From contig CALCTU010000123.1 of assembly GCA_937907045.1 (NCBI GenBank), positions 1 through 35,599 of the forward strand: a stretch of 35,599 nt of DNA, read 5' to 3'. The position numbers and the translations under genes are program-made. Positions within the stretch are counted from its first letter, which is position 1; each line of letters starts with the position of its first letter. This DNA comes from an uncultured Alphaproteobacteria bacterium. Its GTDB lineage: Bacteria; Pseudomonadota; Alphaproteobacteria; Rickettsiales; UBA6187. This document shows, piece after piece, positions 7,896-32,382 of the stretch. The notes under the pieces were generated by a model, which saw nothing but the letters and a program-made list of their open reading frames with translations, was not told the DNA's origin and did no database searches.

Positions 7896-10800
7896 GGTAA
7901 CACAAGACGGTTCTATCGGTCTTGGTGTGTGGTTGCCCGTTTTAGCTGTATTGTATGTACTTGTTACTGTAACAAGCACCCCTGCTTTTGCCGGTAGGAC
8001 AAAAGAGGTGCGAGCCGGTAATGATACTACATTTAATCGTGCTACCATCGAAGTAACCTACGATGATCCGCTGTGGTTTGGATCGCATACTTCTACATTA
8101 ACACATGGTGAATGTAGTTGGATGGGGCATTTTTTAATCCGGGTATGTGCACGTCTTGCAGAACCTATTCCTGAAAAATTTCCAAATGATGCGGGTTATG
8201 ATCCGAACAATCCTGATAATAACCGGGGCAGAGAAAATTTTGGTAATAGAACTGGCCTAGAAGGTGATCCTCGTATTCAGCTTTGTGCGTATGAAGATCC
8301 GTGTGATGGTATGGATCCTCCGGATGGTATTTGCCTGTTATGGGAAAACAACATTAGTCCTTTTCATAAACATACTCCCAATCAAGATGCAATTAGTATG
8401 TCTAATGCCATTTTAATTGGTGGAGCAGCGGCCGTAGTAGCCGGTCCTTTTGGTATTGTTGCGGGTATGTTTACGGGAGCGATGGTGTCATTAATTACCT
8501 CGCATTTTAATCATGTTGTCATAGAAACGCTTGGCTGCGTGGATGTGCCAATGCCTCCTATGCCTCCTGAGTGGTGTAATGATTGCTGGTATGTGCCATA
8601 CTATCCAACACCTGAAATAGAATCTGCGCCAGATGCGACTTTCTTTGATCCTGCTGTTAAAATTACAATTTGTCAAAATAGTGAGAGCCTTCGTGACCCT
8701 AAGGAACTTGAAAAATGTTCACATGAGGACGCTGTAGTACTTGAATCATTTGAGTTGCATCCAAACTTGTCAAACATGACTATGAGAGATGGTAGGCCGC
8801 TATATAGAGAATGTAAGGTTCCTTCTGCTCCAAATGATTCAAGGAATTTTTGTGCTGAAGTTTCAACTGCACGACCTTGGGAAACATGTGTGTTTAGAGA
8901 AATGAGCGATGGTGACAGAGCGATGCTTGCTTGTGTAGACCGTCCGCCTGAAGGTCAAGGTATACCCAAGCCTACTATTTCTCAAGAAAGAGATACTTTT
9001 GATGGTGCCAGGGTAACCATTCAGTATCCTGATCCAGGTGAAGGAATCTTACAGCTTAGAGAAGATCCTGCGTTATTTGATGGAAAAGAGGAAACAGTAC
9101 CAAATCCTGATTGGACAGAACATTGTGGTTATTTACAGCAATATGAATTTTGTTTATTCCGCCCATGTGAAGGGGATGACGGAACATCAGGTCCAGGTAG
9201 TCAATGTGACAATTACGAAGATTATTTATGTGTGAGTGGTTATTCGCCGCCTTATGGTGTGGCCATCAATGTTAATACGGGGGATGTTATTGAGGGAACG
9301 CCAAACAAAGAGAATCCGGTAATTAATGCTGGAGAGGCGGAGTGGATTTATCAACCACCGTTTTGTTGGGAACGCGATCCTGTAACACTTGATTGTAAAA
9401 ACTATACTGGTGAGTGTTGTTCAATGGCGCCTGATCCAGAAGATCCTTCAGCGATAGTTGATACATGTCCAGGTATAGTAGGTCCTTATACAGACGAAGA
9501 AGGGATGTGTTTGCATTATGTGCCTCATGTGGGTGTGGATGTATATACGTTAGATACAGATCCAATTGATCCGGCATGTCCTACAACAACTGGAGAAACC
9601 GAGCCACTGGACTGTAGACCAAAAGAAACAGTGCGTCCATTGACCCCTAAAGAAATGGGGATGTGCCTTAGAGTGCCAGATTCAAATTTCTTAACGATTG
9701 AAAATGGTCCCACTACATTTGATTATAATGTACCAAATGCATGTGGACGAGTACAAGTGCGTATGTGGGCCGGTGGTGGCCGTGGCCATGCATCTGGAGG
9801 AGGAGATAGTAATGACTTTTCAGGTGGTTCTGGTTCGTATGCACAGCTTGAGTTGGACGTTGACCCGTTAGATACAATTGAGTTTGTAGTAGGAGGGGGA
9901 TCCGTAGGTGGCGGTAATTGGCATGGTTATCCTTCGTGCCTTGCAATTGCAGACGATCCACCCGTTGCGCTTAATTGTAATGATGTGGATGCCATTACAG
10001 TAAATCCAGGTAAAGGTCATAATGTTAGTGTGCCGGTGGATTCATATGGTATTGGAAATGCTGGTGTCTTGCCAGAAGGTTATGATTCAGGGGCATGGCG
10101 ATGGAAAGGTGAAGATTGTCAAACTGGTAATAGTAATGCTGGGTGTTACATTATGGACCAAACCCGACACGGATATTCAGGTGGTCATAGTGGAAATGGT
10201 ATTCATGGTCCAGCAGGTGGCAATACACCTCCGTGGTGGTGGTATATCAATAGAGCGCTTAGTGTGGGGCCGGCAGGGGTCAATTATCACTCGCGGTTTA
10301 GTGAAGGTTACATTGGCTGTTGGCCAGATGGGGTACGTCCTCATCCTCGCTCCATATACACAGAACTTCCAGATGAGCCGTTAAGGCCTGGAGGAGCCCA
10401 GCCACAATATACGGTTAATGTCAGTAGTTATGGTACAGTAGGTGATTTTGATGCTGTGACGGTAACGCCAATGGCAGAAACAATTTATTTTGGGAAGATT
10501 AATATTTCTGGCCAAGACGAGTTCTTTATACGCTCATATAATGTTGACGGCGAGCTTGAGGCAATACCAAGGATGTCGTCAGTTACACAGTCAGACGGGG
10601 GAGAAGGGTTTGAAATGCCAGAATCCAGTGGTGCTGACCCATATATCAAATTATCTGATCTGAAACCAAGCCAGGAGCTTGCCCTTGCCAGAAAACATTC
10701 TGTGTATAATGAACTGGCTGCAAAATTGGATAATTGGATTGCCGACCCATCGATTGCTGGTTTAACGGAAGATATTATTCAAGATACCCAAATTATTGCC

Positions 10801-11574
10801 GGTGGTCCGTTGGTGGGTGGTTTAAGTGTTGCTGCGTACGCTAATTTATCTGAGTTTGATGCAGTTGAGGCTGTTGCTGATACCTTATTTTATGCAAAAA
10901 TTGGTGGAGATTATTACTTGCGATCATACGACAATAGTAGTCCCCCAGAGTTATTGCCAATACCCGATACAGCAGGGTCTGCAGCCATGCATGTGGCACT
11001 AACTTCGTTAGACCCAATTACGGATCCTGCCGAAGAGGCAGAGGCTACTGAAAATGAAGCAGAAGCAAATGAGCTTGTTTCGGCATATGATGAGTTGATT
11101 GAAAATTTAGGTCAGTGGTTGTCTGGAAGTATTGGTACATCCCAAAGTAATCTTATTTTAAATGGATCACGTATTGTCACTGGTCTTAGTTTATATAAAG
11201 CTGAAGGTGCAACGGTTTTTGAGCATCGTTGGCCGGGTGCAGGGGGATGTTCTTGGGACGATCCAGATGATGAGCCGTGGGGACATGGTGCGCATGGTCG
11301 TGTGGAAATTAAATGTATTAAAGGTAGTGGCTTGATTATGGATCAAGTTCCGTGCCCTGCAACTACTCAAGTTGTTGGCTATTTAAATATAGAGACAAAC
11401 ACGTTTGAGATGGAAACATGTACGATGCCAGAAACGCCATATGGTTTTTATGCACCTGCTGGCTCATGTGAGAATACTGCATCTACTCCTGCTATATTTG
11501 ATGCATCTTTAGGGCATAGAGTCCGTGCATTTAGAGCACCTCCAATGTGTAATAACGGCTCATGGGTTTATTAG
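7849..11574 (+). CDS. Giant cysteine-rich secreted/envelope protein with a split glycine-rich (ALK/LTK-GRD-like) domain; function unknown
   Basis: 1,241-codon ORF overlapping the virB4 stop (7893-7895); the alternative start ATG 7882 (MRWLRV) gives a 14-nt overlap. The N-terminus is signal-peptide-like and ends TSTPAFA/GR. A second hydrophobic helix lies at nt ~8407-8500. I count about 40 Cys, and the protein is Pro/Asp/Gly-rich. The glycine-rich motif is FDYNVPNACGRVQVRMWAGGGRGHASGGGDSNDFSGGSGSYAQLELDV..IEFVVGGGSVGGG. Confidence 0.8.
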   Translation: MMTLETGYKDFMRWLRVTQDGSIGLGVWLPVLAVLYVLVTVTSTPAFAGRTKEVRAGNDTTFNRATIEVTYDDPLWFGSHTSTLTHGECSWMGHFLIRVCARLAEPIPEKFPNDAGYDPNNPDNNRGRENFGNRTGLEGDPRIQLCAYEDPCDGMDPPDGICLLWENNISPFHKHTPNQDAISMSNAILIGGAAAVVAGPFGIVAGMFTGAMVSLITSHFNHVVIETLGCVDVPMPPMPPEWCNDCWYVPYYPTPEIESAPDATFFDPAVKITICQNSESLRDPKELEKCSHEDAVVLESFELHPNLSNMTMRDGRPLYRECKVPSAPNDSRNFCAEVSTARPWETCVFREMSDGDRAMLACVDRPPEGQGIPKPTISQERDTFDGARVTIQYPDPGEGILQLREDPALFDGKEETVPNPDWTEHCGYLQQYEFCLFRPCEGDDGTSGPGSQCDNYEDYLCVSGYSPPYGVAINVNTGDVIEGTPNKENPVINAGEAEWIYQPPFCWERDPVTLDCKNYTGECCSMAPDPEDPSAIVDTCPGIVGPYTDEEGMCLHYVPHVGVDVYTLDTDPIDPACPTTTGETEPLDCRPKETVRPLTPKEMGMCLRVPDSNFLTIENGPTTFDYNVPNACGRVQVRMWAGGGRGHASGGGDSNDFSGGSGSYAQLELDVDPLDTIEFVVGGGSVGGGNWHGYPSCLAIADDPPVALNCNDVDAITVNPGKGHNVSVPVDSYGIGNAGVLPEGYDSGAWRWKGEDCQTGNSNAGCYIMDQTRHGYSGGHSGNGIHGPAGGNTPPWWWYINRALSVGPAGVNYHSRFSEGYIGCWPDGVRPHPRSIYTELPDEPLRPGGAQPQYTVNVSSYGTVGDFDAVTVTPMAETIYFGKINISGQDEFFIRSYNVDGELEAIPRMSSVTQSDGGEGFEMPESSGADPYIKLSDLKPSQELALARKHSVYNELAAKLDNWIADPSIAGLTEDIIQDTQIIAGGPLVGGLSVAAYANLSEFDAVEAVADTLFYAKIGGDYYLRSYDNSSPPELLPIPDTAGSAAMHVALTSLDPITDPAEEAEATENEAEANELVSAYDELIENLGQWLSGSIGTSQSNLILNGSRIVTGLSLYKAEGATVFEHRWPGAGGCSWDDPDDEPWGHGAHGRVEIKCIKGSGLIMDQVPCPATTQVVGYLNIETNTFEMETCTMPETPYGFYAPAGSCENTASTPAIFDASLGHRVRAFRAPPMCNNGSWVY
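10441..11205 (+). repeat. Diverged tandem duplication (~120-135 aa units) inside the giant ORF
   Basis: Unit 1 begins GDFDAVTVTPMAETIYFGKINISGQDEFFIRSYNVDGELEAIP and continues through ELALARKHSVYNELAAKLDNWIADPS...IIAGGPLVGGLSV. Unit 2 (from nt 10849) begins SEFDAVEAVADTLFYAKIGGDYYLRSYDNSSPPELLPIP and continues through EANELVSAYDELIENLGQWLSGSI...IVTGLSLY. Both units are Cys-free. Confidence 0.55.
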
Positions 11575-15714: not shown

Positions 15715-16641
15715 TTAATTAGCGGGCATATCATCGGATTCTTCTGCTTTGGCAGCATAAGAACAAATGGCCCTGGTGCCATTATTTTCGTAGGATATGT
15801 TTAAGCCCATTAGTTTTGCCGTAGCAATTCCCCTGCCGTTAAGGTCGGTAAGACGAAGTGGATCAAAGTCCATAAACTGATCCCATTCAAACCCTTCACC
15901 TTCATCGTCAATAGTAATAGTGATTCTTTCTGGGGTTCGATGATAGTTGACGGTCACGCGTCTATCTTTATATGCAGGTAGGTCGTAGCGTAGTTGAACT
16001 TCTTCTTCCAACTTATTTTTTGAGAGCAACGTGTTTTTCTCTTCGTAATTTATTCCTAAGTTACCATGCTCAACAGCATTAATAAGAATTTCGGATAACG
16101 CAACACTAGTTTCGTCTGGATTGCTAGAATAGTATGATAGTACCCCTGCAAGGCGCTTTGCGTCCTCGATGGTTTTATATTTAAATTGGCCTTCCAGCAG
16201 TAAATGAGCAACCGCCTTTTCTTGTTTCATACTAGTACGAACATCATCGTGATGAACGTGGTCGCGGGCTGCAGCATGAACTAACGATACCATAACGCTT
16301 GGATCAAAAGGTTTTTCTAGGTAGTAATAGGCTCCTGCAGCAAGTCCTTGTTTAGTTTCTTGAACGCCAATATCACCGGTTTGGATAATAACAGGTACAT
16401 TACGAAGCACTTTATGAGACTTCATACGTTTGAGTACTTCCATACCATTCATACGCGGCATCATTTTATCTAGTAAAACAATGTCAATTTCTTCAGGGTT
16501 AGAATTCATGTAACCCCAGGCAACATCACCATCTTCAAAAGAAATACATTCAAAGCCTGCATCTTTTAGGTTCTTATTTAAAATTTCTAGGTTGATAACA
16601 TCATCATCAACCGCCATAACCTTAAGTGAATTTGACATCAT
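15715..16641 (-). CDS. Response-regulator receiver fused to an RsbW/SpoIIAB-like (HATPase_c_2-type) serine kinase domain
   Basis: REC: VMAVDDD..., phospho-acceptor context IVLLDKMMPRMNG, and LEKPF. C-terminal half: N-box-like SEILINAVEHGN, G1-like ITIDDEGEGF, G2-like NGRGIATAKL. There is no HisKA H-box, so this is the anti-sigma-kinase type, not a histidine kinase. Confidence 0.6.
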   Translation of the reverse strand: MMSNSLKVMAVDDDVINLEILNKNLKDAGFECISFEDGDVAWGYMNSNPEEIDIVLLDKMMPRMNGMEVLKRMKSHKVLRNVPVIIQTGDIGVQETKQGLAAGAYYYLEKPFDPSVMVSLVHAAARDHVHHDDVRTSMKQEKAVAHLLLEGQFKYKTIEDAKRLAGVLSYYSSNPDETSVALSEILINAVEHGNLGINYEEKNTLLSKNKLEEEVQLRYDLPAYKDRRVTVNYHRTPERITITIDDEGEGFEWDQFMDFDPLRLTDLNGRGIATAKLMGLNISYENNGTRAICSYAAKAEESDDMPAN

Positions 16642-21431: not shown

Positions 21432-22922
21432 TTATGCAAGTTCTGTTTCGGTGATGAAGTGCTCTTGCCCAAATGAAATGCACACACGCGTGCCTTTGTG
21501 GGGCTGACTTGTAATTGAAAATGACCCGCCCAGTATTTCGGTAAGCTTTTGTGTTAGCGGAAGTCCTAATCCGGTGCCATCAGAAGGTTGGGCTAGCTCG
21601 CTTTTAATTTGGCCAAAACGTTTGAGAGCTATTGCTAGTTCGTCATCAGTCATGCCTATTCCAGAGTCTTCAATAACAATAAGCAGGTGTTGTTGTTCTT
21701 TATTTTCGATGACATTAGTAGAAATAACAATATTGCCCCCCTGTGGAGTAAACTTGGTGGCATTGCCAAGAATATTAATCAAGATTTGCTTAAATCGTGT
21801 TTTATCTGTAACAAGTTCTGGTAGGTGTGGTGGCTGGTAGCGCACGTGTAATTGTTTTTCCTGAATGATGGGTGATAAAATTTGAATAGAAGCGGCTATG
21901 GTTTCACTAATGTTGATAGGTTGTTTTGTTACTGACATAAGGTTGGCTTCTATTTTAGACAAATCGAGTAAGTCATTAATTAAGCACAGTAGGTGTTTGC
22001 CTGATTGGTTAATATCTTGGGCATATTCAAGATATTTATCGTTATTCATTGGGCCTAACATTTGATTGGCTTGAATTTCAGAAAAATTAATAATGGCGTT
22101 CAGAGGGGTGCGGAGTTCGTGACTCATATTGGATAAAAATTCAGATTTGGCTTGGTTGGCCTGTTCGGCAACTTCTTTGGCAATATGGAGTGCATCGTTG
22201 GTGGTGGTAAGGCTATGATTGCGTTTTTCAATGTGTGCTAGCATTGTATTAAAACTTTCAACAAGAGAGCTAAGTTCGCATGATGCAGATTTTGTAGAAA
22301 GTGACGATGCTCGAATAGAATAATCTTGCTGCTGAGATATTTTTTTAGCTTTATTTACAAGGTCTGTAATAGGAGTTGTGACTTTGCTGTGTAACTTCAA
22401 TGCAAGTAAGTAGGATATAAAAAGGACACAGACTGCGATGATCGATCCTGTAACAAGTTGATTGTCAACAAAGGTGGTGATTTGGTTTACTTGTGAATAA
22501 ATATATAAAGTACCCACGGTAGTGTTTTGATCAGTAATGGGGTGAACGTAGGAAGCAAAGTTATTGTCGAATGTAAGTGAAGGGCGTGGAGGAACTTGAG
22601 GGCATGATTTTTTAGCATCTAGCTGGCGGTTTCTATAGGCCGTTATTAGTGAAAGCTCTTGGTTATACAGGCATGCCCCTGAAATTGTTTCAATAGAATT
22701 AAGGCTTGATAGGATGTCTATTTGTTGGTCATGGTGTATATTATGGACGTATATTTGAGAAACAAACGACGCTGTAGCATAAAGATGCTGGGAGATATGA
22801 AAGCGAATTTCACGTGCACCCGTTGCGATCATTGCAACGACACTCAGCACAATAGAAATGGCACTCACAGCCATAACAATGATAATCAGCTGTTGCCGAA
22901 TGGAAGATGGTAAAACTAGCAT
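21432..22922 (-). CDS. Membrane sensor histidine kinase (periplasmic CHASE8-like sensor, HAMP, HisKA, HATPase); orphan
   Basis: TM1 is LIIIVMAVSAISIVLSVVAMI. The periplasmic segment carries ACLYNQELSLITAYRN...TVGTLYIYS. TM2 is followed by a HAMP-like linker. H-box SHELRTPLNAIINFSE, N-box NILGNATKF, G-boxes DSGIGM and GTGLGL. Confidence 0.85.
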   Translation of the reverse strand: MLVLPSSIRQQLIIIVMAVSAISIVLSVVAMIATGAREIRFHISQHLYATASFVSQIYVHNIHHDQQIDILSSLNSIETISGACLYNQELSLITAYRNRQLDAKKSCPQVPPRPSLTFDNNFASYVHPITDQNTTVGTLYIYSQVNQITTFVDNQLVTGSIIAVCVLFISYLLALKLHSKVTTPITDLVNKAKKISQQQDYSIRASSLSTKSASCELSSLVESFNTMLAHIEKRNHSLTTTNDALHIAKEVAEQANQAKSEFLSNMSHELRTPLNAIINFSEIQANQMLGPMNNDKYLEYAQDINQSGKHLLCLINDLLDLSKIEANLMSVTKQPINISETIAASIQILSPIIQEKQLHVRYQPPHLPELVTDKTRFKQILINILGNATKFTPQGGNIVISTNVIENKEQQHLLIVIEDSGIGMTDDELAIALKRFGQIKSELAQPSDGTGLGLPLTQKLTEILGGSFSITSQPHKGTRVCISFGQEHFITETELA

Positions 22923-23197
22923 CTACAGTAAATTTTTTAGTCTCGTTTTTTAGGTGTAAACCACCATGTCATGGTTGAATCATAGCGCTTAAATATCGCA
23001 TTTCAATGTCTTTTTTGTTTTCGATCGTGAATAAAAGTGTAAATGAAAACACCATTTATTGGAGAGAAATGGCCTTAGATCATAAACTATGAGATTTTCG
23101 TGTTGCCTTGAGGTTGCAAATATACTAGGCTTAACTAATGTTCTGATTGAATTTAATCAGGCAGATGGGGTTTGATATTTATTTTCCAGGGAGGATC

Positions 23198-23551
23198 ATG
23201 ACAGAAGAAAATACGAATGAGGCTCAATCTGAATCAAGTCAGGAGTCGGTGGAAGCCAGTAAAGGTGGCTCTACTGAGGTAAAGCTTCCTCAAATGTGTG
23301 AAATATCAGATGCAAAGCAAATATATGACCTTATTAAAGAAGCAAATGCTAAGGGGAGTGAGGTTATTATTGATGCCTCTGAGGTAACGTCTCTGACAAC
23401 TCCATGTTTGCAAATTCTTATTTCAGCGTCTAGTCATGTGACTGAAGGGGGCGGCTCCTTTGTGATCAAAGGTGAAACAGATGTGTTTAGGAAATCTGTG
23501 TCTGATTTTGGATTATTTTCAAAATTACAGGAGTGGGGGTGTCAGGTATGA
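23198..23551 (+). CDS. Small STAS-domain protein heading the che operon (non-phosphorylatable type)
   Basis: ATG 23198 is preceded by GGGAGG. The STAS-like core is IIDASEVTSLTTPCLQILISA....SFVIKGETDVFRKSVSDFGL and lacks the DS[ST]G phospho-site. A small STAS ORF precedes cheY1-cheA in rhizobial che operons (from memory). The stop overlaps the cheY start (ATGA). Confidence 0.65.
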   Translation: MTEENTNEAQSESSQESVEASKGGSTEVKLPQMCEISDAKQIYDLIKEANAKGSEVIIDASEVTSLTTPCLQILISASSHVTEGGGSFVIKGETDVFRKSVSDFGLFSKLQEWGCQV

Positions 23552-23922
23552 GTCGTGTAGCGTTAACTGTGGATGACTCAAAAACCATCCGCCAAATGGT
23601 CTCTTTTACTCTCAAACAAGCCGGATTTGATGAAGTGTGGGAAGCAGAAGATGGGCGTCATGCTATTTCGGTACTTGGAGATAAGCACGTTGATATTATT
23701 ATTACTGACCTAAATATGCCAAATATGGATGGTTTTGAGTTATTGAGGCATTTACGTCAGGATCCCAATTACAAATTCATCCCTATATTAATGTTAACAA
23801 CTGAGGGTGATGATTCAAAAAAACAAAAGGGCAAAGATGCCGGTGCTACAGGTTGGATTGTAAAGCCGTTTGTTCCTGAAAAGTTAATAAAAGTTGTTAA
23901 AAAAGTTGCCAATATTGACTAA
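23548..23922 (+). CDS. cheY: Chemotaxis response regulator CheY
   Basis: Single REC domain: ALTVDDSKTIRQMV, phospho-acceptor context IIITDLNMPNMDG, LMLTTE, and GWIVKPF. Start ATG 23548 overlaps the upstream stop. Confidence 0.9.
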   Translation: MSRVALTVDDSKTIRQMVSFTLKQAGFDEVWEAEDGRHAISVLGDKHVDIIITDLNMPNMDGFELLRHLRQDPNYKFIPILMLTTEGDDSKKQKGKDAGATGWIVKPFVPEKLIKVVKKVANID

Positions 23923-23976
23923 CAGTTGGTTTATATTGGGGGGTAATTTATATAATTATGTTGGTGGGTATGAATC

Positions 23977-26166
23977 ATGATGGATGACTTAGATCAGTTT
24001 AAGGATACCTATATCACCGAATGCAATGAGCTTCTGGAGGATATGGAGGAGCGGTTGCTGGGTATTGATGAATCAGATCCTGATCTTGAAGACGTCAATG
24101 CAGTTTTTAGGTGTGCGCATTCTATTAAAGGTGGTGCTGGAGCATTTGGTTTGACCGAAATAGGTGGGTTCACCCATATTTTGGAAGAATTGTTGGATGC
24201 TATGCGTAATTCTGAAGTGCAGGTTACGCGTGAAATTATTGATTTATTGCTGGCATCTGCAGAAGTTGTTAAAGAAATGGTAGCAACGGTTCAGCAAGGG
24301 GATCCGGTTCCAGAAACGTTGGGTCAAGATTTGGCGATTGAATTAAGAAAAGTTGTTGCTGAACAGTCAGGTGGTGGAGCTGCATCAGAAGAAGCTCCTG
24401 CGGAAAGCTCGGAGGCTCCAGAAGAGGCACCGTCGAGTGATGCATCTTCAGACTCGTCTGCTCAAGATCCAAACCCCACAGGGACAAGGGAAGTTGAAAT
24501 TGGCATATATGATATAGAATTTAAGCCGCATAAAGGACTCTTTCTTACCGGTAATGAGCCTCTCTTTATTATTAGAGAGCTTAAGGAATTAGGGTCGTTA
24601 GAAGTTTATACGCAAATTGATGAACTTCCTGAGTTTGATAAACTTGAGCCAGAATCATGCTATGTTTGGTGGAAGTTTGTGTTAGAAGCGGAGGCAACTA
24701 CCGAAAAATTGACTGAAGTTTTTGAATTTGTAGAAGATGAGTGCGATTTAACAATAAACCGATTAGGGGGATATAGTAAGCAGGTTGAGTTAACAGAAGA
24801 AGAAAAGGCCGCGCAGCAAGCTGCAGTGGAAGCATCAAAAGAGCCACAAGAAAGTGATGACCAGGATAACAATGCCCCTCAAGAAGAGACTGCTGAAGAT
24901 AAACAAAAAGTTGAAGAAGAGAAAAAGCCTGCACCCGCTAAGGCCAAGAGTAATAAAGATAAAGCTGCCAAAGCTCCAGTGGCTGCTTCAATTCGTGTAG
25001 ATGTTGATAAAATTGACCGTTTGGTTAACTTGGTTGGCGAGCTAGTTATCAATCAGGCAATGATATCATCCCAGGCAGATAAACTACCAAAGGATAAGTT
25101 TTTTGGGCTATTAAATGGCATATCAGAACTGTCACAGCATATGGTTGAGCTTCAAGAAGCTGTGATGGCTGTGCGTATGATGCCAGTAAAATCAGTTTTT
25201 TCACGGATGTCGATGTTGGTTCGTGATTTAAGTGCAAAGTTAGGTAAGAATATCCGCATGGATATGGCGGGTGAGAATACGGAGCTCGATAAGACTGTTA
25301 TTGAGCAATTAACAGACCCATTAACTCATATGATACGAAATTCTGTGGACCACGGTATTGCTACGCCTGAGGTTCGCTTGGAGCAGGGAAAGCCTGAAGA
25401 AGGCGTCATAAAATTGACCGCAGAGCATTCTGGTGGACGAATTCTGATCCGTATAGAAGATGATGGTAATGGTATTGAAAGGCAGCGTGTCTTGGATAAG
25501 GCAGTCGAAAAAGGTTTGATTTCCGAAGATGCTGAACTGTCTGATCATGAAATTGATAATCTTATTTTTATGGCAGGATTTTCTACTGCTGAGGCTGTGT
25601 CAGACATTTCTGGTCGTGGTGTGGGGATGGATGTTGTCAGAAGAAACATAGAGTCATTGGGTGGTACTGTTACAATTGACAATAATCCAGGCGTTGGTAA
25701 TGCATTTATCATTGTATTGCCGCTTACTTTAGCAATTCTTGATGGTATGATTGTGCGTGTGGGTAATGAAAAATACGTTATTCCTATAGGTTCTATTGTT
25801 GAGACGCTAAGACCTTCTTCTGAAGATATCCAAAAGATTGCAGATAAAAGTGAGACGATCAATGTCAGGGGAGAGTTTGTCCCAATATTGTACCTCTATC
25901 AGCTCTTCAATATCCAGGATGCTAAACATACTATTTCGGATGGACTAGTGATCTTGCTAGAAAATGGTGATGACAAATTTGGCCTTGTGGTAGATGAGTT
26001 AATAGGACAACAACAGGTGGTTATTAAGAGTTTAGAAGAAAATTCTTTTGTCGTCCCTGGAATTTCAGCTGCTACCATCTTAGGTGACGGTAGGGTTTCT
26101 TTGATCCTGGATGTCGCTGGAGTAAGAAATATGGAGACCCCTATGGCGTTGGCTGAGGTGTCTTGA
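23977..26166 (+). CDS. cheA: Chemotaxis histidine kinase CheA (P1-P5, no C-terminal receiver)
   Basis: Hpt motif FRCAHSIKGGAGAFG, dimerisation region IRVDVDKIDRLVNLVGELVI, kinase N-box HMIRNSVDHGI, G-boxes DDGNGI and GRGVGMDVV. The C-terminal CheW-like P5 domain is present. Two acidic or Lys-rich low-complexity linkers separate the domains. Confidence 0.93.
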   Translation: MMDDLDQFKDTYITECNELLEDMEERLLGIDESDPDLEDVNAVFRCAHSIKGGAGAFGLTEIGGFTHILEELLDAMRNSEVQVTREIIDLLLASAEVVKEMVATVQQGDPVPETLGQDLAIELRKVVAEQSGGGAASEEAPAESSEAPEEAPSSDASSDSSAQDPNPTGTREVEIGIYDIEFKPHKGLFLTGNEPLFIIRELKELGSLEVYTQIDELPEFDKLEPESCYVWWKFVLEAEATTEKLTEVFEFVEDECDLTINRLGGYSKQVELTEEEKAAQQAAVEASKEPQESDDQDNNAPQEETAEDKQKVEEEKKPAPAKAKSNKDKAAKAPVAASIRVDVDKIDRLVNLVGELVINQAMISSQADKLPKDKFFGLLNGISELSQHMVELQEAVMAVRMMPVKSVFSRMSMLVRDLSAKLGKNIRMDMAGENTELDKTVIEQLTDPLTHMIRNSVDHGIATPEVRLEQGKPEEGVIKLTAEHSGGRILIRIEDDGNGIERQRVLDKAVEKGLISEDAELSDHEIDNLIFMAGFSTAEAVSDISGRGVGMDVVRRNIESLGGTVTIDNNPGVGNAFIIVLPLTLAILDGMIVRVGNEKYVIPIGSIVETLRPSSEDIQKIADKSETINVRGEFVPILYLYQLFNIQDAKHTISDGLVILLENGDDKFGLVVDELIGQQQVVIKSLEENSFVVPGISAATILGDGRVSLILDVAGVRNMETPMALAEVS

Positions 26167-26198
26167 TTATTTTTATGTTATCGTTTTAGGAGATTGCA

Positions 26199-26789
26199 AT
26201 GACAGATTTAGCTGTAAAAGAGAAAGTAATCGATGAAAATCAGGATGGTGAATCTTCTGTAGATAGAGGGAATCAAAAACAGTTTCTAAGTTTTGCTGCA
26301 GGCGAAGAAGAGTTTGCAATTGAGTTGATTAAAATACGTGAGATTAAAAATTACGGTGATCTAACTAGAATACCAAATGCACCAAGCTTCATGCGCGGAG
26401 TAATGAACTTGCGTGGTGCCGTGATTCCCATTTTTGATCTCAAGTTACGGCTTGATATGGGGGGGGTTAACTCAGACGAATCAAGTGTTGTTATTATTGT
26501 TGGGGTGATGGGAAAACAGATTGGTATATTGGTTGATTCTGTTTCGGATATACTGACCATTGATGCAAGTGAAATTGCTCCTGCGCCTAGGGTCGACTCA
26601 GGAAAGAAAGCTCAATGTTTAGAAGGGGTGATTGCTGTAAAGGGCAAAATGGTAGTTATTTTACAGTTAGAGCAATTATTTTCTGATGAAGTATTACGAG
26701 ATGCCAAAAAGGGTGACGTAACAAGTAACCATGTTAGCGCTTCTGATGCTGAGGTTTTAGAAGAACCTGCAAATATTGATGATGAATAA
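26199..26789 (+). CDS. cheW: Chemotaxis coupling protein CheW (with N- and C-terminal extensions)
   Basis: Core is FLSFAAGEEEFAIELIKIREIKNYGDLTRIPNAPSFMRGVMNLRGAVIPIFDLKLRL...GILVDSVSDIL. An AGGAG Shine-Dalgarno precedes the ATG. Confidence 0.88.
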   Translation: MTDLAVKEKVIDENQDGESSVDRGNQKQFLSFAAGEEEFAIELIKIREIKNYGDLTRIPNAPSFMRGVMNLRGAVIPIFDLKLRLDMGGVNSDESSVVIIVGVMGKQIGILVDSVSDILTIDASEIAPAPRVDSGKKAQCLEGVIAVKGKMVVILQLEQLFSDEVLRDAKKGDVTSNHVSASDAEVLEEPANIDDE

Positions 26790-26806
26790 AGGTTTGGGTT
26801 GCGCTT

Positions 26807-27658
26807 ATGGAAGGTGGCAATAAGGAATTTGACTTTTCAGATAAGGACTTTGAGTTCATCTCGGATATGGTGAAGTCACGGGTTGGCATTATGCTGCCAT
26901 ACAAAAAGAAGCAGATGGTATATGGAAGGCTTGTAAGAAGGCTTAGGGCATTAGGAATCCCAACATTTACAGAATACTGCAAACTATTAAGAGACGAAAA
27001 AAAAGCAGATGAAGAGTTAACACAGTTTGTTAATGCAATTACAACGAATCTTACGGGATTCTTCCGTGAGGCTCATCATTTTGAACATTTAAAGAGTTAT
27101 CTTCAGGATTTACAGCAATCAAAACAAAAGAGCAAAGAAGCTAGTTGTTTTAGATTGTGGTCGTCAGCGTGTTCCTCTGGACAAGAGCCCTACAGTATAG
27201 CAATGACAGTACTTAATTCTTTTCCTTCGATTGCGAACATAGATGTTAAAATATTAGCTACAGACATTGATACAAATATGCTTGATAGAGCCAAAGAAGG
27301 TATATACCACGAAGATGCTTTTTCTAAGGCTCCTCCTGGTTATATGAAAGAATATACAAGCTCTGCTTCTCAGGAAAGTGAAGGAATGCGTCAAGTAAAG
27401 CATTCGGTTAAAGATTTGATACGATTTAATCAGTTAAACTTGTTAAATGCATGGCCGATGAAAGGATTATTTGATGTTATTTTTTGCCGTAATGTAGTTA
27501 TTTATTTTGATAAAGATACTCAAAGGGTACTATTTGATCGTATGGCAGAAAAAATGCATATGGGGGCCATACTATATATAGGTCACTCTGAAAGTTTATT
27601 TAATATTTGTGACCGCTTTGAGTCTTTGGGGCAAACAATATACAGGAAAATAAAATAG
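26807..27658 (+). CDS. cheR: Chemotaxis protein methyltransferase CheR
   Basis: N-terminal helical domain (FEFISDMVKSRVGIML...TNLTGFFRE). The SAM-binding core is LWSSACSSGQEPYSIAM...ILATDID...FDVIFCRNVVIYFD. Confidence 0.9.
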   Translation: MEGGNKEFDFSDKDFEFISDMVKSRVGIMLPYKKKQMVYGRLVRRLRALGIPTFTEYCKLLRDEKKADEELTQFVNAITTNLTGFFREAHHFEHLKSYLQDLQQSKQKSKEASCFRLWSSACSSGQEPYSIAMTVLNSFPSIANIDVKILATDIDTNMLDRAKEGIYHEDAFSKAPPGYMKEYTSSASQESEGMRQVKHSVKDLIRFNQLNLLNAWPMKGLFDVIFCRNVVIYFDKDTQRVLFDRMAEKMHMGAILYIGHSESLFNICDRFESLGQTIYRKIK

Positions 27659-27668
27659 GGAAGAAGAA

Positions 27669-28727
27669 ATGGGAAATAAAATAAAAGTACTAATTGTTGA
27701 TGACTCTCTGTTCATAAGGCAGATGGTTACTAATATGTTAGAAAGCGAAGCAGATATAGAAGTTTTAGGTGCGGCGGTTGATCCTTATGAAGCAAGGGAG
27801 ATGATTAAAAAGCTAAATCCTGATGTTCTTACCCTGGACGTTGATATGCCTCGTATGGATGGTATTTCGTTCTTAGAGAAACTAATGAAGCTCAGGCCAA
27901 TGCCGGTTATCATGTTGTCTTCTTTAACACAAAAAGGAGCAGATGTTTCTATCCGTGCGTTGGAAATTGGTGCTGTAGATTATGTGGCAAAGCCGTTAGA
28001 GGGAAACATTGAAGATGCCTTTAAGTCACTAAAAGGAGAGTTGGTAGAAAAGATTCGAGTTGCTGCAAGCTCAAAAGTTCGTACTAATAGTAATAGGACA
28101 GCATCGGATAATGCCTCTGGTTCACAAAAAATACTTGAGTGTTCTGCTTCAAATATGAAGCGTAATATTATAGCTATTGGTGCTTCAACAGGTGGTGTTG
28201 AAGCGTTGAATTCTGTTCTTACCGTTTTGCCTGATAATTTACCTCCAATTGTTATTACGCAGCATATGCCGGCACAATTTACTAAATCATTTGCAGATCG
28301 TTTAAATCAGCAATGTAAAGTGTCAGTGTGTGAAGTTAAAGATGGTGAAAAGCTGGAGTCAGGTTGTGTTTATGTGGCACCAGGAGGGATGCACTTGAGA
28401 ATAAAAATGGTAGGTTCTTACTATAAAGCAGTGGTTGGAGGAACCGATAAGATATCAGGACATTGTCCATCTGTAGATGCGTTATTTAAGTCTGTTAGTG
28501 AAGAAGCCGGTGATAAGGCGCTAGGAGTGATACTTACTGGTATGGGAAGTGATGGTGCGGATGGTCTATTACACATGCACAATAAAGGAGCGATTACCTT
28601 AGGTCAAAATGAGGCAACTTGTGTGGTTTATGGTATGCCAAAAGCTGCATTTTCGGCTGGAGCTGTGCAGGAACAAGTTGCATTAGAAAAAATAAGTGAA
28701 AAAATAGTAGAAGGTGTAATGAAGTAA
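27669..28727 (+). CDS. cheB: Protein-glutamate methylesterase/response regulator CheB
   Basis: REC: VLIVDDS, VLTLDVDMPRMDG, VAKP. The methylesterase domain has IIAIGASTGGVEAL, ITQHMPAQFT and LTGMGSDGADGL. Confidence 0.92.
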   Translation: MGNKIKVLIVDDSLFIRQMVTNMLESEADIEVLGAAVDPYEAREMIKKLNPDVLTLDVDMPRMDGISFLEKLMKLRPMPVIMLSSLTQKGADVSIRALEIGAVDYVAKPLEGNIEDAFKSLKGELVEKIRVAASSKVRTNSNRTASDNASGSQKILECSASNMKRNIIAIGASTGGVEALNSVLTVLPDNLPPIVITQHMPAQFTKSFADRLNQQCKVSVCEVKDGEKLESGCVYVAPGGMHLRIKMVGSYYKAVVGGTDKISGHCPSVDALFKSVSEEAGDKALGVILTGMGSDGADGLLHMHNKGAITLGQNEATCVVYGMPKAAFSAGAVQEQVALEKISEKIVEGVMK

Positions 28728-28789
28728 TGTTTGTGTTATACTTAACGAGTAAGGACAAGCTTATGCTGCTGGGGGAGGGCTAAGTATAA

Positions 28790-29638
28790 ATGGCGGAAGT
28801 TGATATACGGTTACCTGCCGAAGATTTGTTACACAGCCTACTAAACCAAGGTATTTGTGATGATACTGATTACGTTAAAGATAGAGAGTCGCAAGTAGAG
28901 TGTGGCGATAATATTGAAGCTCTGAAGGAAAACGAATCAGGACAAGAAGATGATATTGATGACACTGTCCAAGACAAAAAATTGGACGATGCGGTTGTCG
29001 AATCGACTGCTATTGAAGATGAAAGAACAAAGTCTTTTAGGCAACATTTTATAAGCTTTATCAGGCAGCAAATGCAAGAAATTGTTGTGCTGACGGACGA
29101 CTCAATTTCGCAAGTGACTGAGAGTTTAATTAAGGTCCTTGAGCTGCTTTCTAATGATAAATCTTCCCAAGAGAAACGCCTTTTATTGGCGAGTGTAAAT
29201 GATATTTTGAGTAACCTTAGTCATTTGGTGTCAGATTTAGATGATACTCGTGTTTATGCGCTGAATCAAAGTTTGGTGCATGATAATCAAGACAATAACA
29301 CAGGTAAAACGATGCATAAGGCCTTGTTTGAGCTTACTAGGCGCTCTAATGAGGTGTTAGCACTAAACCAGCAGGTATTTAGTCTGGTTAGACAGGCCAA
29401 TGACTCCCAAAAAGATATTGTTATGTGTCATAAGTTACTTTTAAATATGATGACGTCTTTGCAATTTGGTGATAATGTTCGTCAACATATGATGGCGATA
29501 ATTGCGCTGCTGCCGGTATTGACGGATGTACTGGATCAACGATATTCAGTTGATCAGGCTCTGGTATATTGCCAAGAGAATATAGGCTTGTCTTCTGTTA
29601 AGAAGAAATTCACAGAGGCTATGCGTACGTTTTTGTAG
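28790..29638 (+). CDS. Hypothetical acidic protein in the che operon; candidate divergent CheZ-like phosphatase (DxxxQ motif)
   Basis: 282 aa, same strand, 62 nt after cheB. The N-terminus is acidic and disordered-looking; the rest looks helical. The motif LQFGDNVRQ (nt 29462-29485) has the same Asp-x3-Gln spacing as the CheZ active-site FQDLTGQ. No other recognisable domain. Confidence 0.4.
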   Translation: MAEVDIRLPAEDLLHSLLNQGICDDTDYVKDRESQVECGDNIEALKENESGQEDDIDDTVQDKKLDDAVVESTAIEDERTKSFRQHFISFIRQQMQEIVVLTDDSISQVTESLIKVLELLSNDKSSQEKRLLLASVNDILSNLSHLVSDLDDTRVYALNQSLVHDNQDNNTGKTMHKALFELTRRSNEVLALNQQVFSLVRQANDSQKDIVMCHKLLLNMMTSLQFGDNVRQHMMAIIALLPVLTDVLDQRYSVDQALVYCQENIGLSSVKKKFTEAMRTFL

Positions 29639-29669
29639 TTGTTTAATGGTATGATAAAAGAAGGTTGCC

Positions 29670-29975
29670 ATGGAGATAGAACATAATATAGAGTCTGATA
29701 CGCTGACTATTGCGTTAAGAGGAAAGTTTACATTTGCTGATCAAGAAGAGTTTAAGTCGTTGTTTTCTTCTTTGGAAGCGGATGACATAAAGCATTGTTT
29801 GATTGATTCTTCAGAGCTTGAATTTGTAGATTCTGCAGCTCTTGGATTGTTTCTTTTATTGCGCGAGCAAGCGGAGAAACATGATGTGAAGCTCGTACTA
29901 AAATCGCCTTCAGGGCAGGTTAAGCAGATGTTTGACTTATCCAGGTTTCCAGAGCTATTCACAATAGAAGATTAA
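29670..29975 (+). CDS. STAS-domain anti-sigma-factor antagonist (RsbV/SpoIIAA-like)
   Basis: 101 aa: DTLTIALRGKFTFADQEEF...LIDSSELEFVDSAALGLFLLLRE...KLVLKSPSGQVKQMFDLSRF. The phospho-site-type motif is DSAALG. Confidence 0.8.
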   Translation: MEIEHNIESDTLTIALRGKFTFADQEEFKSLFSSLEADDIKHCLIDSSELEFVDSAALGLFLLLREQAEKHDVKLVLKSPSGQVKQMFDLSRFPELFTIED

Positions 29976-30032
29976 TAAAATATTAATGATTTTTTGATAT
30001 GATTTGCTTTATGTATTAGGTAAAGGAGATCA

Positions 30033-31244
30033 TTGATTGTGAATTCATCAATAAGAAATATTGATAAAGATGAATTATACGCCACCATCAAACGCGATTC
30101 TAAGGTTTTGCTTGTTGATGATATGGAATTTAATATTCTTGCATTAGAAAATATACTCAAAACATCTGGTTTTCTTGATATAGAGAAAGCTAAAGATGGC
30201 AAAGAAGCTCTAGAAAAAACAAAAGAGATAAATCCAGACTTGGTTATTCTTGATATTGTTATGCCAGAGATTGATGGATATGGTTACTGTGAGCAGATAC
30301 GAAAAGAAGAAGAGTTCGCTAATTTACCAATTCTTGTACAAAGTGGTGTTAGTGACGCAGATGAAAAGAGGCGTATATTTGAAGTAGGGGCAACGGACTA
30401 TGTGTCAAAGCCTATTGACCCGGAAGAGTTAATAGCTCGTACATTGTCGCACCTTGAAAAGAATAGGTTGTTTAATGACTTAGAGCTGTCGAGAAAACGA
30501 ATGTCTGCAGAGCTTGAACAAGCTAAAGCAATGCAGAATATGTTGATGCCTTCTGATGATATTATCTCACAAGTACAAGCATCATATAATATAGAAATGT
30601 ATTCTTTATTTGAAACATCTTCAGAGCTAGGTGGAGATTTTTGGGGTGTTGAACCCATAGATGAACAATCATTTGCAGTTTATTGTACAGACTTTTCAGG
30701 TCATGGCGTGGCATCTGCTCTTAATACTTTTCGACTACATACTATTATGCAAGAAGATAATGATCTGAAATCGCAGCCTGACAAGTATTTGGATTACTTA
30801 AATGAGAAACTTTATCATTTGTTGCCTACTGAACAATTTGCAACAATGTTTTATGGAGTGATTGATGTAAAAGAAGACAAACTTCGTTACGTAACAGCTG
30901 GTTCAACCAAGCCAATTGTAATGCATAAAGATAATGGCTATGCTATCATTCCTGGAGATGGTTTTCCATTGAGTATACAAAAAGGAATACCGTACGACTT
31001 ACATGAAGTGGACTTTTATAAGAACGACCTTTTATTGCTATATAGTGACGCTCTTATTGAAACTCCTAGCTATCAAGGAGATCTTTTAACAGAGAAAGAT
31101 TTAGTGAAGATGGTAAAGAAAATGCAGGTCCATAGAAATCTTTACCCAGAAAACTTATTTAATACGTTGGTTCAAACGGTAAAAGACAATTTTTGGGATA
31201 ACATTACCGACGATTTGACAATTAATCTCTATTTTCGGACATAG
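30033..31244 (+). CDS. Response regulator with PP2C/SpoIIE-type serine phosphatase output (RsbU/HsbR-like)
   Basis: REC: VLLVDDMEFN, LVILDIVMPEIDG, YVSKPI. PP2C/SpoIIE motifs: ELGGDFWGV, DFSGHGVASAL, LLYSDALIE. AAGGAG lies at 30023-28. The start is either TTG 30033 or GTG 30039. Confidence 0.85.
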   Translation: MIVNSSIRNIDKDELYATIKRDSKVLLVDDMEFNILALENILKTSGFLDIEKAKDGKEALEKTKEINPDLVILDIVMPEIDGYGYCEQIRKEEEFANLPILVQSGVSDADEKRRIFEVGATDYVSKPIDPEELIARTLSHLEKNRLFNDLELSRKRMSAELEQAKAMQNMLMPSDDIISQVQASYNIEMYSLFETSSELGGDFWGVEPIDEQSFAVYCTDFSGHGVASALNTFRLHTIMQEDNDLKSQPDKYLDYLNEKLYHLLPTEQFATMFYGVIDVKEDKLRYVTAGSTKPIVMHKDNGYAIIPGDGFPLSIQKGIPYDLHEVDFYKNDLLLLYSDALIETPSYQGDLLTEKDLVKMVKKMQVHRNLYPENLFNTLVQTVKDNFWDNITDDLTINLYFRT

Positions 31245-31251
31245 TTTATTA

Positions 31252-31524
31252 TCAAACAATGCTGACAATTTTTTGAATATTGTGCGAAAGTAGAAGGGAC
31301 TTTACATTTTGTTGTAAGTTGCAAATGCTTAATGATTTGTTGTTCTCATCTGCGATATGCTTAGATAGAAGAATAAAACTAATGCCTACCGAGCCAAGAT
31401 AATCAACATCACTGAAATCGAGTATAATGTCATTCTCTTGGTCATCATTAAGTGCTCCGTCCATCACACTTACGACGCTCTGATAGTCGTTTGAAAGTAT
31501 CCTATGGTTTATAAGAATATTCAT
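31252..31524 (-). CDS. STAS-domain protein, divergent (anti-sigma antagonist-like)
   Basis: 90 aa: ILDFSDVDYLGSVGISFILLSK....LSICNLQQNVKSLLLSHNI. In the phospho-site region Asp is replaced (YLGSVG). Confidence 0.6.
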   Translation of the reverse strand: MNILINHRILSNDYQSVVSVMDGALNDDQENDIILDFSDVDYLGSVGISFILLSKHIADENNKSLSICNLQQNVKSLLLSHNIQKIVSIV

Positions 31525-31585
31525 AAATACCCGTTGGAAACGATTGCTTGATATAAGTGATCACGCTACCAAAGGTTTATCAGCT

Positions 31586-31900
31586 TTATGACTCACTGTC
31601 AACGATATCAAATATTTCTTGGAAGTTTGAAACCTCAATCATTTTTTTTACTTGTCCTTGAGGGTTTAGTAACCGAACTGTTACGGAGTGTTTGTCTGCA
31701 TGTGACTTTGTAAATAAAAGCATACCAATGGAACGCGAGTCAATAAACTCGGTCTGACTTAAATCAAAGTCAATATTATCACAATTATCAAATTCTAAGC
31801 TTTCAAACACTTGATTGAATTTTTCATGCGAGTGATAATCAAATCGTGTCGGAGTGAAAATGGTAAAATGCCTGTCTTGGGTAACTAGTTTAAATGTCAT
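31586..31900 (-). CDS. STAS-domain anti-sigma-factor antagonist (RsbV/SpoIIAA-like)
   Basis: 104 aa: FDLSQTEFIDSRSIGMLLF...VTVRLLNPQGQVKKMIEVSNF. It closely parallels the 29670-29975 protein (PSGQVKQMFDLSRF versus PQGQVKKMIEVSNF). Confidence 0.8.
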   Translation of the reverse strand: MTFKLVTQDRHFTIFTPTRFDYHSHEKFNQVFESLEFDNCDNIDFDLSQTEFIDSRSIGMLLFTKSHADKHSVTVRLLNPQGQVKKMIEVSNFQEIFDIVDSES

Positions 31901-31917
31901 GTCTGTAGCTCATTATT

Positions 31918-32382
31918 CTAGGGTTGTTTATCAATTTTTTGTTTACTATGGGCAAATTTTTTAGCTAATGAAAGTTCAATTTCATCTTCATCGCAAGCAA
32001 TTTCAATTAGTTTATTCCGGTAAATTTCAAAATGATCGAGTGTTTCTTGGATACGAGTTGCTGTAAATGGCTTTAAAATATATTCCATGGCACCATATGT
32101 TTGTGCTCTGGATACATCTTCAGGGGCTGCACTACCAGTTAAGATGATGCAATAAGCTTGAGGATCATCATCGGTTATAATTTTTAATAAATCCAAGCCA
32201 TTTCCATCCGGAAGGTTAATATCCAGAAAAGAGATGTGAGGTTTTCTTGAGTTGTAAAGATCAACACCTTCTTGATAGGTGGTCGCTGTCCTACAGTTAT
32301 GTTCTTTAAACGCAGAAAGAATAAGAGCACGGTATGTGTGGTTATCTTCAACAATTAGGATATCTAGGTCAAATGTTGCCAT
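31918..32382 (-). CDS. Stand-alone receiver-domain response regulator with short C-terminal helical tail
   Basis: ILIVEDNHTYRALI, phospho-acceptor context ISFLDINLPDGNG, ILTGS, and YILKPF. No DNA-binding or enzymatic output domain. Confidence 0.85.
   Translation of the reverse strand: MATFDLDILIVEDNHTYRALILSAFKEHNCRTATTYQEGVDLYNSRKPHISFLDINLPDGNGLDLLKIITDDDPQAYCIILTGSAAPEDVSRAQTYGAMEYILKPFTATRIQETLDHFEIYRNKLIEIACDEDEIELSLAKKFAHSKQKIDKQP

Follow-up and report, generated by a model that had tools for sequence, protein, structure and literature searches.

The stretch of DNA considered here, referred to as the window throughout, is a fragment of one genome (35,599 nt, contig CALCTU010000123.1 of an uncultured alphaproteobacterium of a Rickettsiales lineage), and it was analysed at the level of sequence, that is, by domains, homology and gene neighbourhood. 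On its plus strand the window carries a chemosensory (che) operon that continues into two genes of the partner-switching type, one for an RsbV-type STAS protein, called the tail STAS in the following, and one for a serine phosphatase in which a receiver domain (REC) is combined with a PP2C domain (REC-PP2C). A convergent operon encodes a stand-alone REC and two further STAS proteins, and a protein with a receiver and an RsbW-type domain as well as a sensor histidine kinase are encoded upstream of the che genes on the minus strand (Table 1).

Table 1. Genes of the che and partner-switching region and the candidate kinase genes (positions in the window; bit scores from profile searches)
Feature	Position	Strand	Profile matches and remarks
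LvrC-like protein with REC and RsbW-type GHKL domain (308 aa)	15715..16641	-	Response_reg 82.4 bits; HATPase_c_2
Sensor histidine kinase of the CHASE8/HAMP type	21432..22922	-	HisKA and HATPase_c; CHASE8 and HAMP weak (Pfam)
CheS-like STAS protein, first gene of the che operon	23147..23551	+	Pfam STAS_2 35.7 bits
CheY	23533..23922	+	Response_reg 101.5 bits; homologues follow the head STAS in related loci
CheA	23977..26166	+	Hpt, dimerisation, HATPase_c and CheW-like domains (Pfam)
CheW, single copy	26199..26789	+	Pfam CheW 126 bits
CheR, directly after cheW	26807..27658	+	Pfam CheR
CheB, directly after cheR	27669..28727	+	CheB_methylest and Response_reg
ORFan of 282 aa in the slot of the McpA-like receptor	28790..29638	+	between cheB and the STAS gene
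RsbV-type STAS protein (tail STAS)	29670..29975	+	Pfam STAS 59.9 bits; TIGR00377 56.5 bits, over the cut-off
REC-PP2C, serine phosphatase response regulator (RsbY/RsbU-type)	30033..31244	+	Response_reg 97.6 bits; SpoIIE/PP2C 118.5 bits
Short divergent STAS paralogue (70-90 aa)	31252..31524	-	Pfam STAS 28.1 bits
Second RsbV-type STAS protein	31586..31900	-	Pfam STAS 45.4 bits
Stand-alone REC, first gene of the convergent operon	31918..32382	-	Response_reg 77.2 bits

The STAS and phosphatase genes at the end of the che operon

The tail STAS has a predicted phospho-acceptor, Ser55, in the motif VDSAALG, which aligns with the phospho-serine of SpoIIAA (MDSSGLG), and it reaches 120 bits with a hidden Markov model (HMM) that was made separately for PP2C-linked STAS proteins. 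The phosphatase (403 amino acids, aa) contains only a REC and a SpoIIE domain according to Pfam and does not have the three-domain architecture of CrsR and HsbR. It matches the structure of a P. aeruginosa REC-PP2C (3EQ2) over its full length, and in an alignment of 24 sequences (A1) the catalytic residues D202, D220, G223-H224-G225, D339 and D393-D394 are invariant and the receiver residues D30, D74 and K126 conserved. As in RsbV/RsbW/RsbU-type systems, there is thus a serine-bearing STAS protein (in the D-S-x-G-L-G region) together with a PP2C that has the metal-binding Asp motifs, and none of the components has lost its catalytic or phospho-site residues.

More than 2000 homologues of the REC-PP2C exist, fused forms of 620-660 aa among them, and 80 loci with such homologues were collected by an alignment-based search (these loci and those of the other searches carry L numbers). 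A single-sequence locus search with the REC-PP2C as query had returned zero confirmed relatives, and tblastn against a plasmid collection gave nothing at E 1e-40. A homologue of the tail STAS is encoded directly 5' of the REC-PP2C in 49 of the 80 loci, and in 42 of the 63 loci that have at least 8 kb of upstream sequence and on which the counts of che linkage and STAS adjacency were based. In a rough neighbour-joining tree, from which the clades were read, the REC-PP2C of the window groups with those of L001, L002, L082 and L084, none of which has an adjacent kinase, and the sister clade is linked to histidine kinases.

The pair is physically continuous with the che operon, as the gaps are 62 nt between cheB and the 282-aa open reading frame (ORF), 31 nt between this ORF and the STAS gene, and 57 nt between the STAS gene and the phosphatase gene. 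Scans for promoters and terminators performed no better than on shuffled sequence and are uninformative on co-transcription. The original prediction, which had been made from the letters of this DNA and a list of its ORFs, holds in these respects: all of its ORFs are present where it placed them, its STAS, REC-PP2C and REC assignments agree with the Pfam scores, the motifs that it quoted (DSAALG, DSRSIG, YLGSVG and none in the STAS at the head of the che operon) are borne out by the alignment with SpoIIAA, and both the continuity with the che genes and the assignment to a partner-switching-type module, with a phosphorylatable STAS protein and a REC-PP2C, are supported, the latter by domains and motifs. 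Judged from these features and from the relatives described below, the genes at 29670-31244 are, at the level of sequence, the conserved RsbV/RsbU-like tail of a chemosensory cluster of the ancestral type ('stage 1' of class F7), and the kinase would be encoded in trans; to this reading as a whole we assign a probability of about 0.6.

Relation to known F7 chemosensory clusters

In stage-1 F7 clusters, the described gene order is anti-sigma antagonist, cheY, cheA, two cheW genes, an aer2-like gene, cheR, cheD, cheB, a gene like mcpA, a second anti-sigma antagonist and a serine phosphatase (PMC7184735). The plus strand of the window follows this order from 23147 to 31244 with STAS, cheY, cheA, cheW, cheR, cheB, the slot gene, STAS and REC-PP2C, and the same order is found in 26 related loci that have both che genes and a STAS gene. 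Altogether 30 of the 63 related loci are che-linked, so that the adjacency is kept in relatives, which had been proposed as a check of the prediction. The general form of the order, STAS-cheY-cheA-cheW-(receptor)-cheR-(cheD)-cheB-(second receptor)-STAS-(RsbW)-REC-PP2C, occurs in metagenome-assembled genomes (MAGs) of Rickettsiales and in Azospirillum, Terasakiella, Breoghania, Sneathiellales and Kiloniellales. That the junction between che genes and partner switch is new, as had been implied, has to be given up in turn, because this order is that of the published stage-1 F7 cluster (PMC7184735), with a counterpart in Shewanella.

The stage-1 clusters of V. cholerae (cluster III) and M. alcaliphilum (PMC7184735) resemble the window in gene order and in the phosphorylatable RsbV-type STAS protein, but the window lacks their Aer2-like receptor, cheD, second cheW and McpA-like receptor. 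In the che1 locus of S. oneidensis, a stage-2 cluster, CrsR and the STAS protein CrsA form a partner switch that controls RpoS (PMC9855816, PMC6482189); CrsR is a fused REC-PP2C-kinase, whereas the phosphatase of the window has no fused kinase or anti-sigma domain. Compared to both, the alphaproteobacterial host and the extra REC-STAS-STAS operon are particular to the window.

How the cluster may have been reduced can be seen from the locus L084, whose REC-PP2C (about 46% identical) is among the closest che-linked ones. L084 has the full order from cheY on, its 5' end being cut, and then runs into a DUF2155 gene and serA, as does the window. It contains one cheW, an 832-aa PAS-HAMP-MCP (methyl-accepting chemotaxis protein) gene between cheW and cheR, cheD between cheR and cheB, and a second MCP gene. 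Pfam and profile scans of the window detected neither an Aer2-like PAS-HAMP receptor nor cheD, nor a second cheW, nor any McpA-like receptor that could be recognised, and as receptor and cheD are present in L084, the cluster of the window appears to be a reduced derivative. By its gene content it is a reduced, receptor-less form in a Rickettsiales-like alphaproteobacterium, and thus a known system with local oddities.

One of these oddities is the 282-aa ORF in the slot of the McpA-like receptor. It has no match in Pfam or NCBIfam (Pfam hits up to E 10 are noise only), finds itself alone in an exhaustive phmmer search of 1.84 billion representatives, and gave no BLASTP match to the McpA-like protein of L084. 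Its single-sequence AlphaFold2 (AF2) model is all-helical with a pLDDT of 40, too poor for a fold search. With a profile of the MCPs in this slot there is a weak collinear match, LQFGDNVRQ against MQFQDRTxQ, centred on QF(Q/G)DxxxQ, with an E-value of 0.02 and a probability of 2% in hhalign and an E-value of 0.21 in hmmsearch. The ORF is possibly a decayed remnant of a soluble McpA-like receptor.

The STAS protein at the head of the operon differs from the other three. It scores 12.9 bits with the HMM for PP2C-linked STAS proteins, versus 120, 105 and 35 bits, and the DS phospho-site motif is absent from its sequence in the alignment, so that it was rejected as a fourth partner-switch paralogue on the basis of its score. 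The count of four STAS paralogues in the switch, as given in the original prediction, is therefore doubtful, also in view of the CheS-like position of this copy. It seems to be of a different family and outside the switch, and its probable best match is CheS, an accessory protein of CheA. CheS of S. meliloti is a STAS-only protein that binds CheA and alters the handling of CheY (PMC12654446), and the two share the position in the che operon, the size class and the lack of a phospho-serine motif. In stage-1 F7 clusters, the first 'anti-sigma factor antagonist' is at the position of the head STAS (PMC7184735).

Che4 of A. brasilense is an F7 system and includes CheS (PMC6759762, PMC8561660). The Azospirillum loci of our collection (L038, L043, L053, L054, L055, L060, L064, L066, L074, L078 and L080) have a che-linked STAS gene and an RsbW gene, followed by two REC-PP2C genes in tandem; these downstream genes go unmentioned in the papers on Che4 of A. 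brasilense, where the number of che4 proteins is given as nine.

A candidate kinase in trans and the inputs of the switch

An RsbW/SpoIIAB-type kinase had been stated to be missing locally. This holds for 29670-32382 and the flanking genes, but not for the window, where the LvrC-like protein of Table 1, called REC-RsbW in the following, is encoded 13 kb upstream. Its HATPase_c_2 domain (PF13581, the RsbW/SpoIIAB family) scores 28.4 bits against a cut-off of 27.4 bits, the motifs NAVEHGN, DEGEGF and GRGIA (N-box, G1 and G2) are present, and with 134.5 bits it is the sole match of the window to an RsbW HMM, as well as the sole HATPase_c_2 protein in the window. RsbW-like domains adjoin the REC-PP2C (within about 2 kb) or are fused to it in 55 of the 80 loci, and an adjacent or fused RsbW-like kinase is found in 26 of the 30 che-linked loci. 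In the clade of the window (L001, L002, L082, L084) there is no adjacent RsbW-like domain. Full-length homologues of REC-RsbW are encoded directly beside STAS-REC-PP2C in L056 (2e-64) and L059 (1e-58), and likewise in L035, L042, L047, L048, L067 and L068. REC-RsbW is thus probably the candidate STAS kinase or anti-sigma partner that acts in trans.

The best full-length match of REC-RsbW in the PDB is 9QIH (49 bits, residues 50-294), which under the PDB name 'SenB' is LvrC of Leptospira (PMC13269768). LvrC is an anti-sigma-like protein under the control of its receiver, and its cognate kinase is LvrB (PMC13269768). The two proteins share the architecture of a REC and a Bergerat/RsbW-like domain, and LvrC is regulated by a dedicated histidine kinase, but sequence identity is low, the presumed kinase is not adjacent in the window, and LvrC is an anti-sigma-like effector for which no STAS or PP2C partners are reported (PMC13269768).

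A sensor for REC-RsbW may be found in the CHASE8/HAMP-type kinase, the gene of which is divergent from the che operon. An alignment-type family search for REC-RsbW gave 80 loci from many phyla, and a histidine kinase is encoded within 6 kb of the REC-RsbW homologue in 41 of them, in about 25 directly upstream. Among the closest homologues are those of two Rickettsiales MAGs, L088 (47% identity) and L152. In L088, the kinase encoded directly 5' of REC-RsbW is a CHASE8-HAMP kinase that is 31% identical to the kinase of the window over the full length, and in L152 the kinase 5' of the REC-RsbW homologue likewise matches it full-length. In the window, both genes are on the same strand, with the kinase gene upstream and a distance of 4.8 kb that is taken up by parE, a 105-aa ORF, trxB and ahpC, and the two likely are a split two-component pair. 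The L088 homologues are in one operon, in the order TonB-dependent receptor, YfiR-like protein, kinase and REC-RsbW.

On this basis, the following mechanism can be proposed, in which the identity of the kinase, its pairing with a regulator and the reactions themselves are deduced from homology and gene neighbourhood. The tail STAS would be phosphorylated on Ser55 by an RsbW-type kinase, and the REC-PP2C would remove this phosphate with an activity set by phosphorylation of its receiver at Asp74. The kinase would be REC-RsbW, probably as the response regulator of the CHASE8-type kinase, and two opposing and separately gated enzymes would thereby determine the ratio of phosphorylated to unphosphorylated STAS. 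The unphosphorylated form would bind the RsbW domain, upon which a partner bound there would be released; alternatively, the STAS protein could itself be the effector, as are HsbA, SypA and RbaV. The convergent operon would contribute a second Ser55 substrate, a truncated and possibly inert STAS protein, and an extra receiver that could serve as phosphate sink or as a further input.

As to the output of such a switch, Alphaproteobacteria have, to our knowledge, no RpoS, which is the target of CrsR. The general stress response of Alphaproteobacteria is governed by PhyR-NepR-EcfG. This response in Alphaproteobacteria is also discussed in the study of the RbaV/RbaW/RbaY system of R. capsulatus, where the STAS protein appears to be the effector and where the targets of alphaproteobacterial switches of the RsbV/W/Y type are regarded as unknown (PMC3999984). 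The role of the ancestral F7 system and of its RsbV/RsbU-like end genes is likewise an acknowledged open question (PMC7184735).

Several points weigh against an F7 tail with a kinase in trans. The F7 class of the CheA was assigned from gene order, not from CheA phylogeny, and because A. brasilense Che4 is an F7 system with CheS (PMC6759762, PMC8561660). Within the 6 kb around REC-RsbW homologues, PP2C or STAS proteins of the present type are encoded in only 16 of the 80 loci, the assignment of REC-RsbW as the kinase is by association, and the RsbW HMM had been seeded with about 57 RsbW-like domains adjoining or fused to REC-PP2C homologues, the domain of the window included. Its pairing with the CHASE8-type kinase derives from two relatives (31% and 47% identity) and concerns genes that are 4.8 kb apart. 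Besides, the window is a genome fragment, and another RsbW-like gene could lie elsewhere. As to a target, the Pfam scan of the window ORFs of at least 100 aa detected no sigma-70-family domain or other target, in agreement with the original prediction that no sigma factor gene is nearby.

Two other partner switches help to place the system. RbaV/RbaW/RbaY of R. capsulatus is an alphaproteobacterial RsbV/RsbW/REC-PP2C set whose genes for phosphatase and kinase are unlinked, and as in the window there is no sigma gene nearby and no cognate sigma factor was found (PMC3999984). RbaW, however, is a stand-alone protein encoded beside rbaV, and the set is not che-linked, whereas in the window the STAS gene is with the phosphatase gene and the kinase has a receiver domain of its own. 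The HptB-HsbR-HsbA pathway of P. aeruginosa had been named as the nearest known logic, and it indeed shares a receiver-gated PP2C that acts on a Ser-phosphorylatable STAS protein, with HsbA having non-canonical partners. The likeness is nevertheless looser than that to CrsR/CrsA or RbaV/W/Y, as HsbR is a single REC-PP2C-kinase polypeptide fed by Hpt from hybrid kinases, whereas in the window the two activities belong to different proteins, each of which has a receiver of its own, and the only Hpt in the scanned ORFs is the P1 domain of CheA.

A different question is which kinase phosphorylates the receiver of the phosphatase. According to the original prediction CheA would feed the REC-PP2C, and perhaps the stand-alone REC, in a chemosensory-to-partner-switch relay that operates instead of or beside motility control, a possibility that we would not call likely. 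The genes are continuous on one strand with gaps of 31-62 nt, the stretch from cheB to the REC-PP2C gene is free of terminator-like sites, although the scan was uninformative overall, and the che link recurs in 30 of the 63 related loci and in gammaproteobacterial F7 clusters. Also the REC-PP2C of the window belongs to a mostly che-linked clade, and the same idea has been proposed for Che1 of Shewanella from its gene organisation. On the other hand, two-hybrid assays in V. vulnificus found no interaction between CheA2 and RsbU (PMC10107281, data not shown there). STAS-REC-PP2C of L082, the closest homologue, has no che genes within 10 kb, in the sister clade an ordinary or hybrid histidine kinase is encoded directly upstream, and STAS-REC-PP2C of the complete MAG OZ244955.1 directly follows a hybrid histidine kinase. 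The part of the relay model that assumed no kinase is wrong for the window. In OZ244955.1, the pair of kinase and REC-RsbW is about 550 kb away from STAS-REC-PP2C. L082 is an ENA metagenome scaffold (71.7 kb; REC-PP2C 48% identical) with the STAS-REC-PP2C pair near parE, and its gene content suggests that the che cluster was lost in this lineage and the partner-switch pair retained.

It is also possible, though we would not call it likely, that the switch is independent of chemosensing, the linkage to che being historical or transcriptional, and that the receivers are fed by ordinary kinases, either the CHASE8-type kinase or the dCache kinase encoded at 1422-3377. Some homologues of the REC-PP2C accompany che clusters, some hybrid histidine kinases and some neither of the two, and the frequent histidine kinases near REC-RsbW homologues (41 of 80 within 6 kb, about 25 directly upstream), the negative two-hybrid result in Vibrio and the presence of two orphan sensor kinases in the window point in the same direction. 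What is hard to explain without functional coupling is that the order of che genes, STAS and phosphatase is kept across Alpha- and Gammaproteobacteria, and in the window no gap of promoter size precedes the module. The kinase at 1422-3377 (minus strand; dCache-like N-terminus, HisKA and HATPase_c) is an orphan with no adjacent response regulator, and is another possible phosphodonor for the orphan receivers of the window. It appears improbable that the cluster as a whole has stopped signalling and is decaying as a relic in a reduced genome. In favour of this are the absence of an Aer2-like receptor, of cheD, of a second cheW and of any McpA-like receptor that could be recognised, the ORFan in the receptor slot, a truncated STAS protein whose DS motif has no Asp, and the relative L082, which seems to have lost the che genes altogether. 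Yet all other ORFs are intact, the motifs for catalysis, phospho-acceptance and ATP binding are conserved, the che and partner-switch genes are free of frameshifts and internal stops over about 9 kb, and receptors may be encoded elsewhere in the genome.

As an extension of the F7 tail with a kinase in trans, the system might integrate multiple inputs, with CheA acting on REC-PP2C, the CHASE8 kinase on REC-RsbW, several STAS paralogues as targets of the two opposing enzymes, and the extra operon providing an additional input and a branched output, and a receptor-less che system would serve gene regulation or another non-motility role in a Rickettsiales-like, possibly host-associated bacterium; we regard this as rather unlikely. 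As a discovery the locus is modest, since the che linkage had already been described and the missing kinase is untrue of the window. It does show the arrangement to be common in Alphaproteobacteria (30 of the 63 related loci che-linked), and it suggests that such switches can have their kinase on a protein of its own, gated by a receiver and served by a dedicated sensor kinase. In a receptor-less, stripped-down case it could be tested cleanly if the phosphatase is driven by CheA or by an ordinary kinase, and should CheA phosphorylate REC-PP2C, the purpose of the ancestral F7 system would become tractable in this minimal cluster.

The convergent operon and other genes of the window

The second RsbV-type STAS protein, in the convergent operon, has a predicted Ser55 in the motif IDSRSIG that aligns with the phospho-serine of SpoIIAA, and it scores 105 bits with the HMM for PP2C-linked STAS proteins. 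It is 39% identical to the tail STAS, with no other close relative among 5.8 billion proteins. A recent local duplication as its source was rejected, because homologues in other genomes are as close to it as its neighbour is (39%). The short STAS paralogue scores 34.8 bits with the same HMM and is N-terminally short, covering only positions 32-97 of the profile; in L081 it is called as a protein of 70 aa. In its motif YLGSVG the serine, Ser45, is kept, but the Asp of the DS motif is replaced by Gly, and the protein is possibly degenerate.

For the stand-alone REC there are only 12 database matches, the best with 43% identity, and its homologues had no STAS neighbour in the three contexts that were examined (3/3), all of them unrelated phosphorelay settings. 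In L086/L087 (683-6510), which represent one metagenomic lineage, one phosphorelay cluster encodes a REC-HATPase_c_2 protein, a hybrid kinase of 1455 aa, a homologue of the stand-alone REC (37%) and Hpt proteins, and this hints weakly that both receiver families can share one pathway.

The full REC-STAS-STAS operon was found in no other locus examined, and of 84 loci, the window's own contig, L015 and L061 are the only ones with a convergent STAS gene 3' of REC-PP2C. In L002 and L084, REC-PP2C is followed directly by the DUF2155 gene, without the convergent operon. By these gene neighbourhoods, the convergent operon is a lineage-specific addition. The stop codons of REC-PP2C (plus strand) and the short STAS (minus strand) are only 7 nt apart (31242-31254) with no terminator-like hairpin between them, and the convergent transcripts could therefore overlap.

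Apart from the signalling genes, the plus strand of the window encodes at 5445-11574 a type IV secretion ATPase of the VirB4/TrbE type (816 aa), followed with an overlap of 47 nt by a 1241-aa ORF with no Pfam match. We take this arrangement to resemble the layout of the vir-homologue type IV secretion systems of Rickettsiales with large VirB6-like proteins. Upstream of these genes, a 174-aa ORF (4724-5248, plus strand) matches with its N-terminus only the last 25 positions of the Fic/DOC profile and looks like a truncated Fic gene, and Fic genes are also found near the STAS-REC-PP2C loci of L082 and L168.

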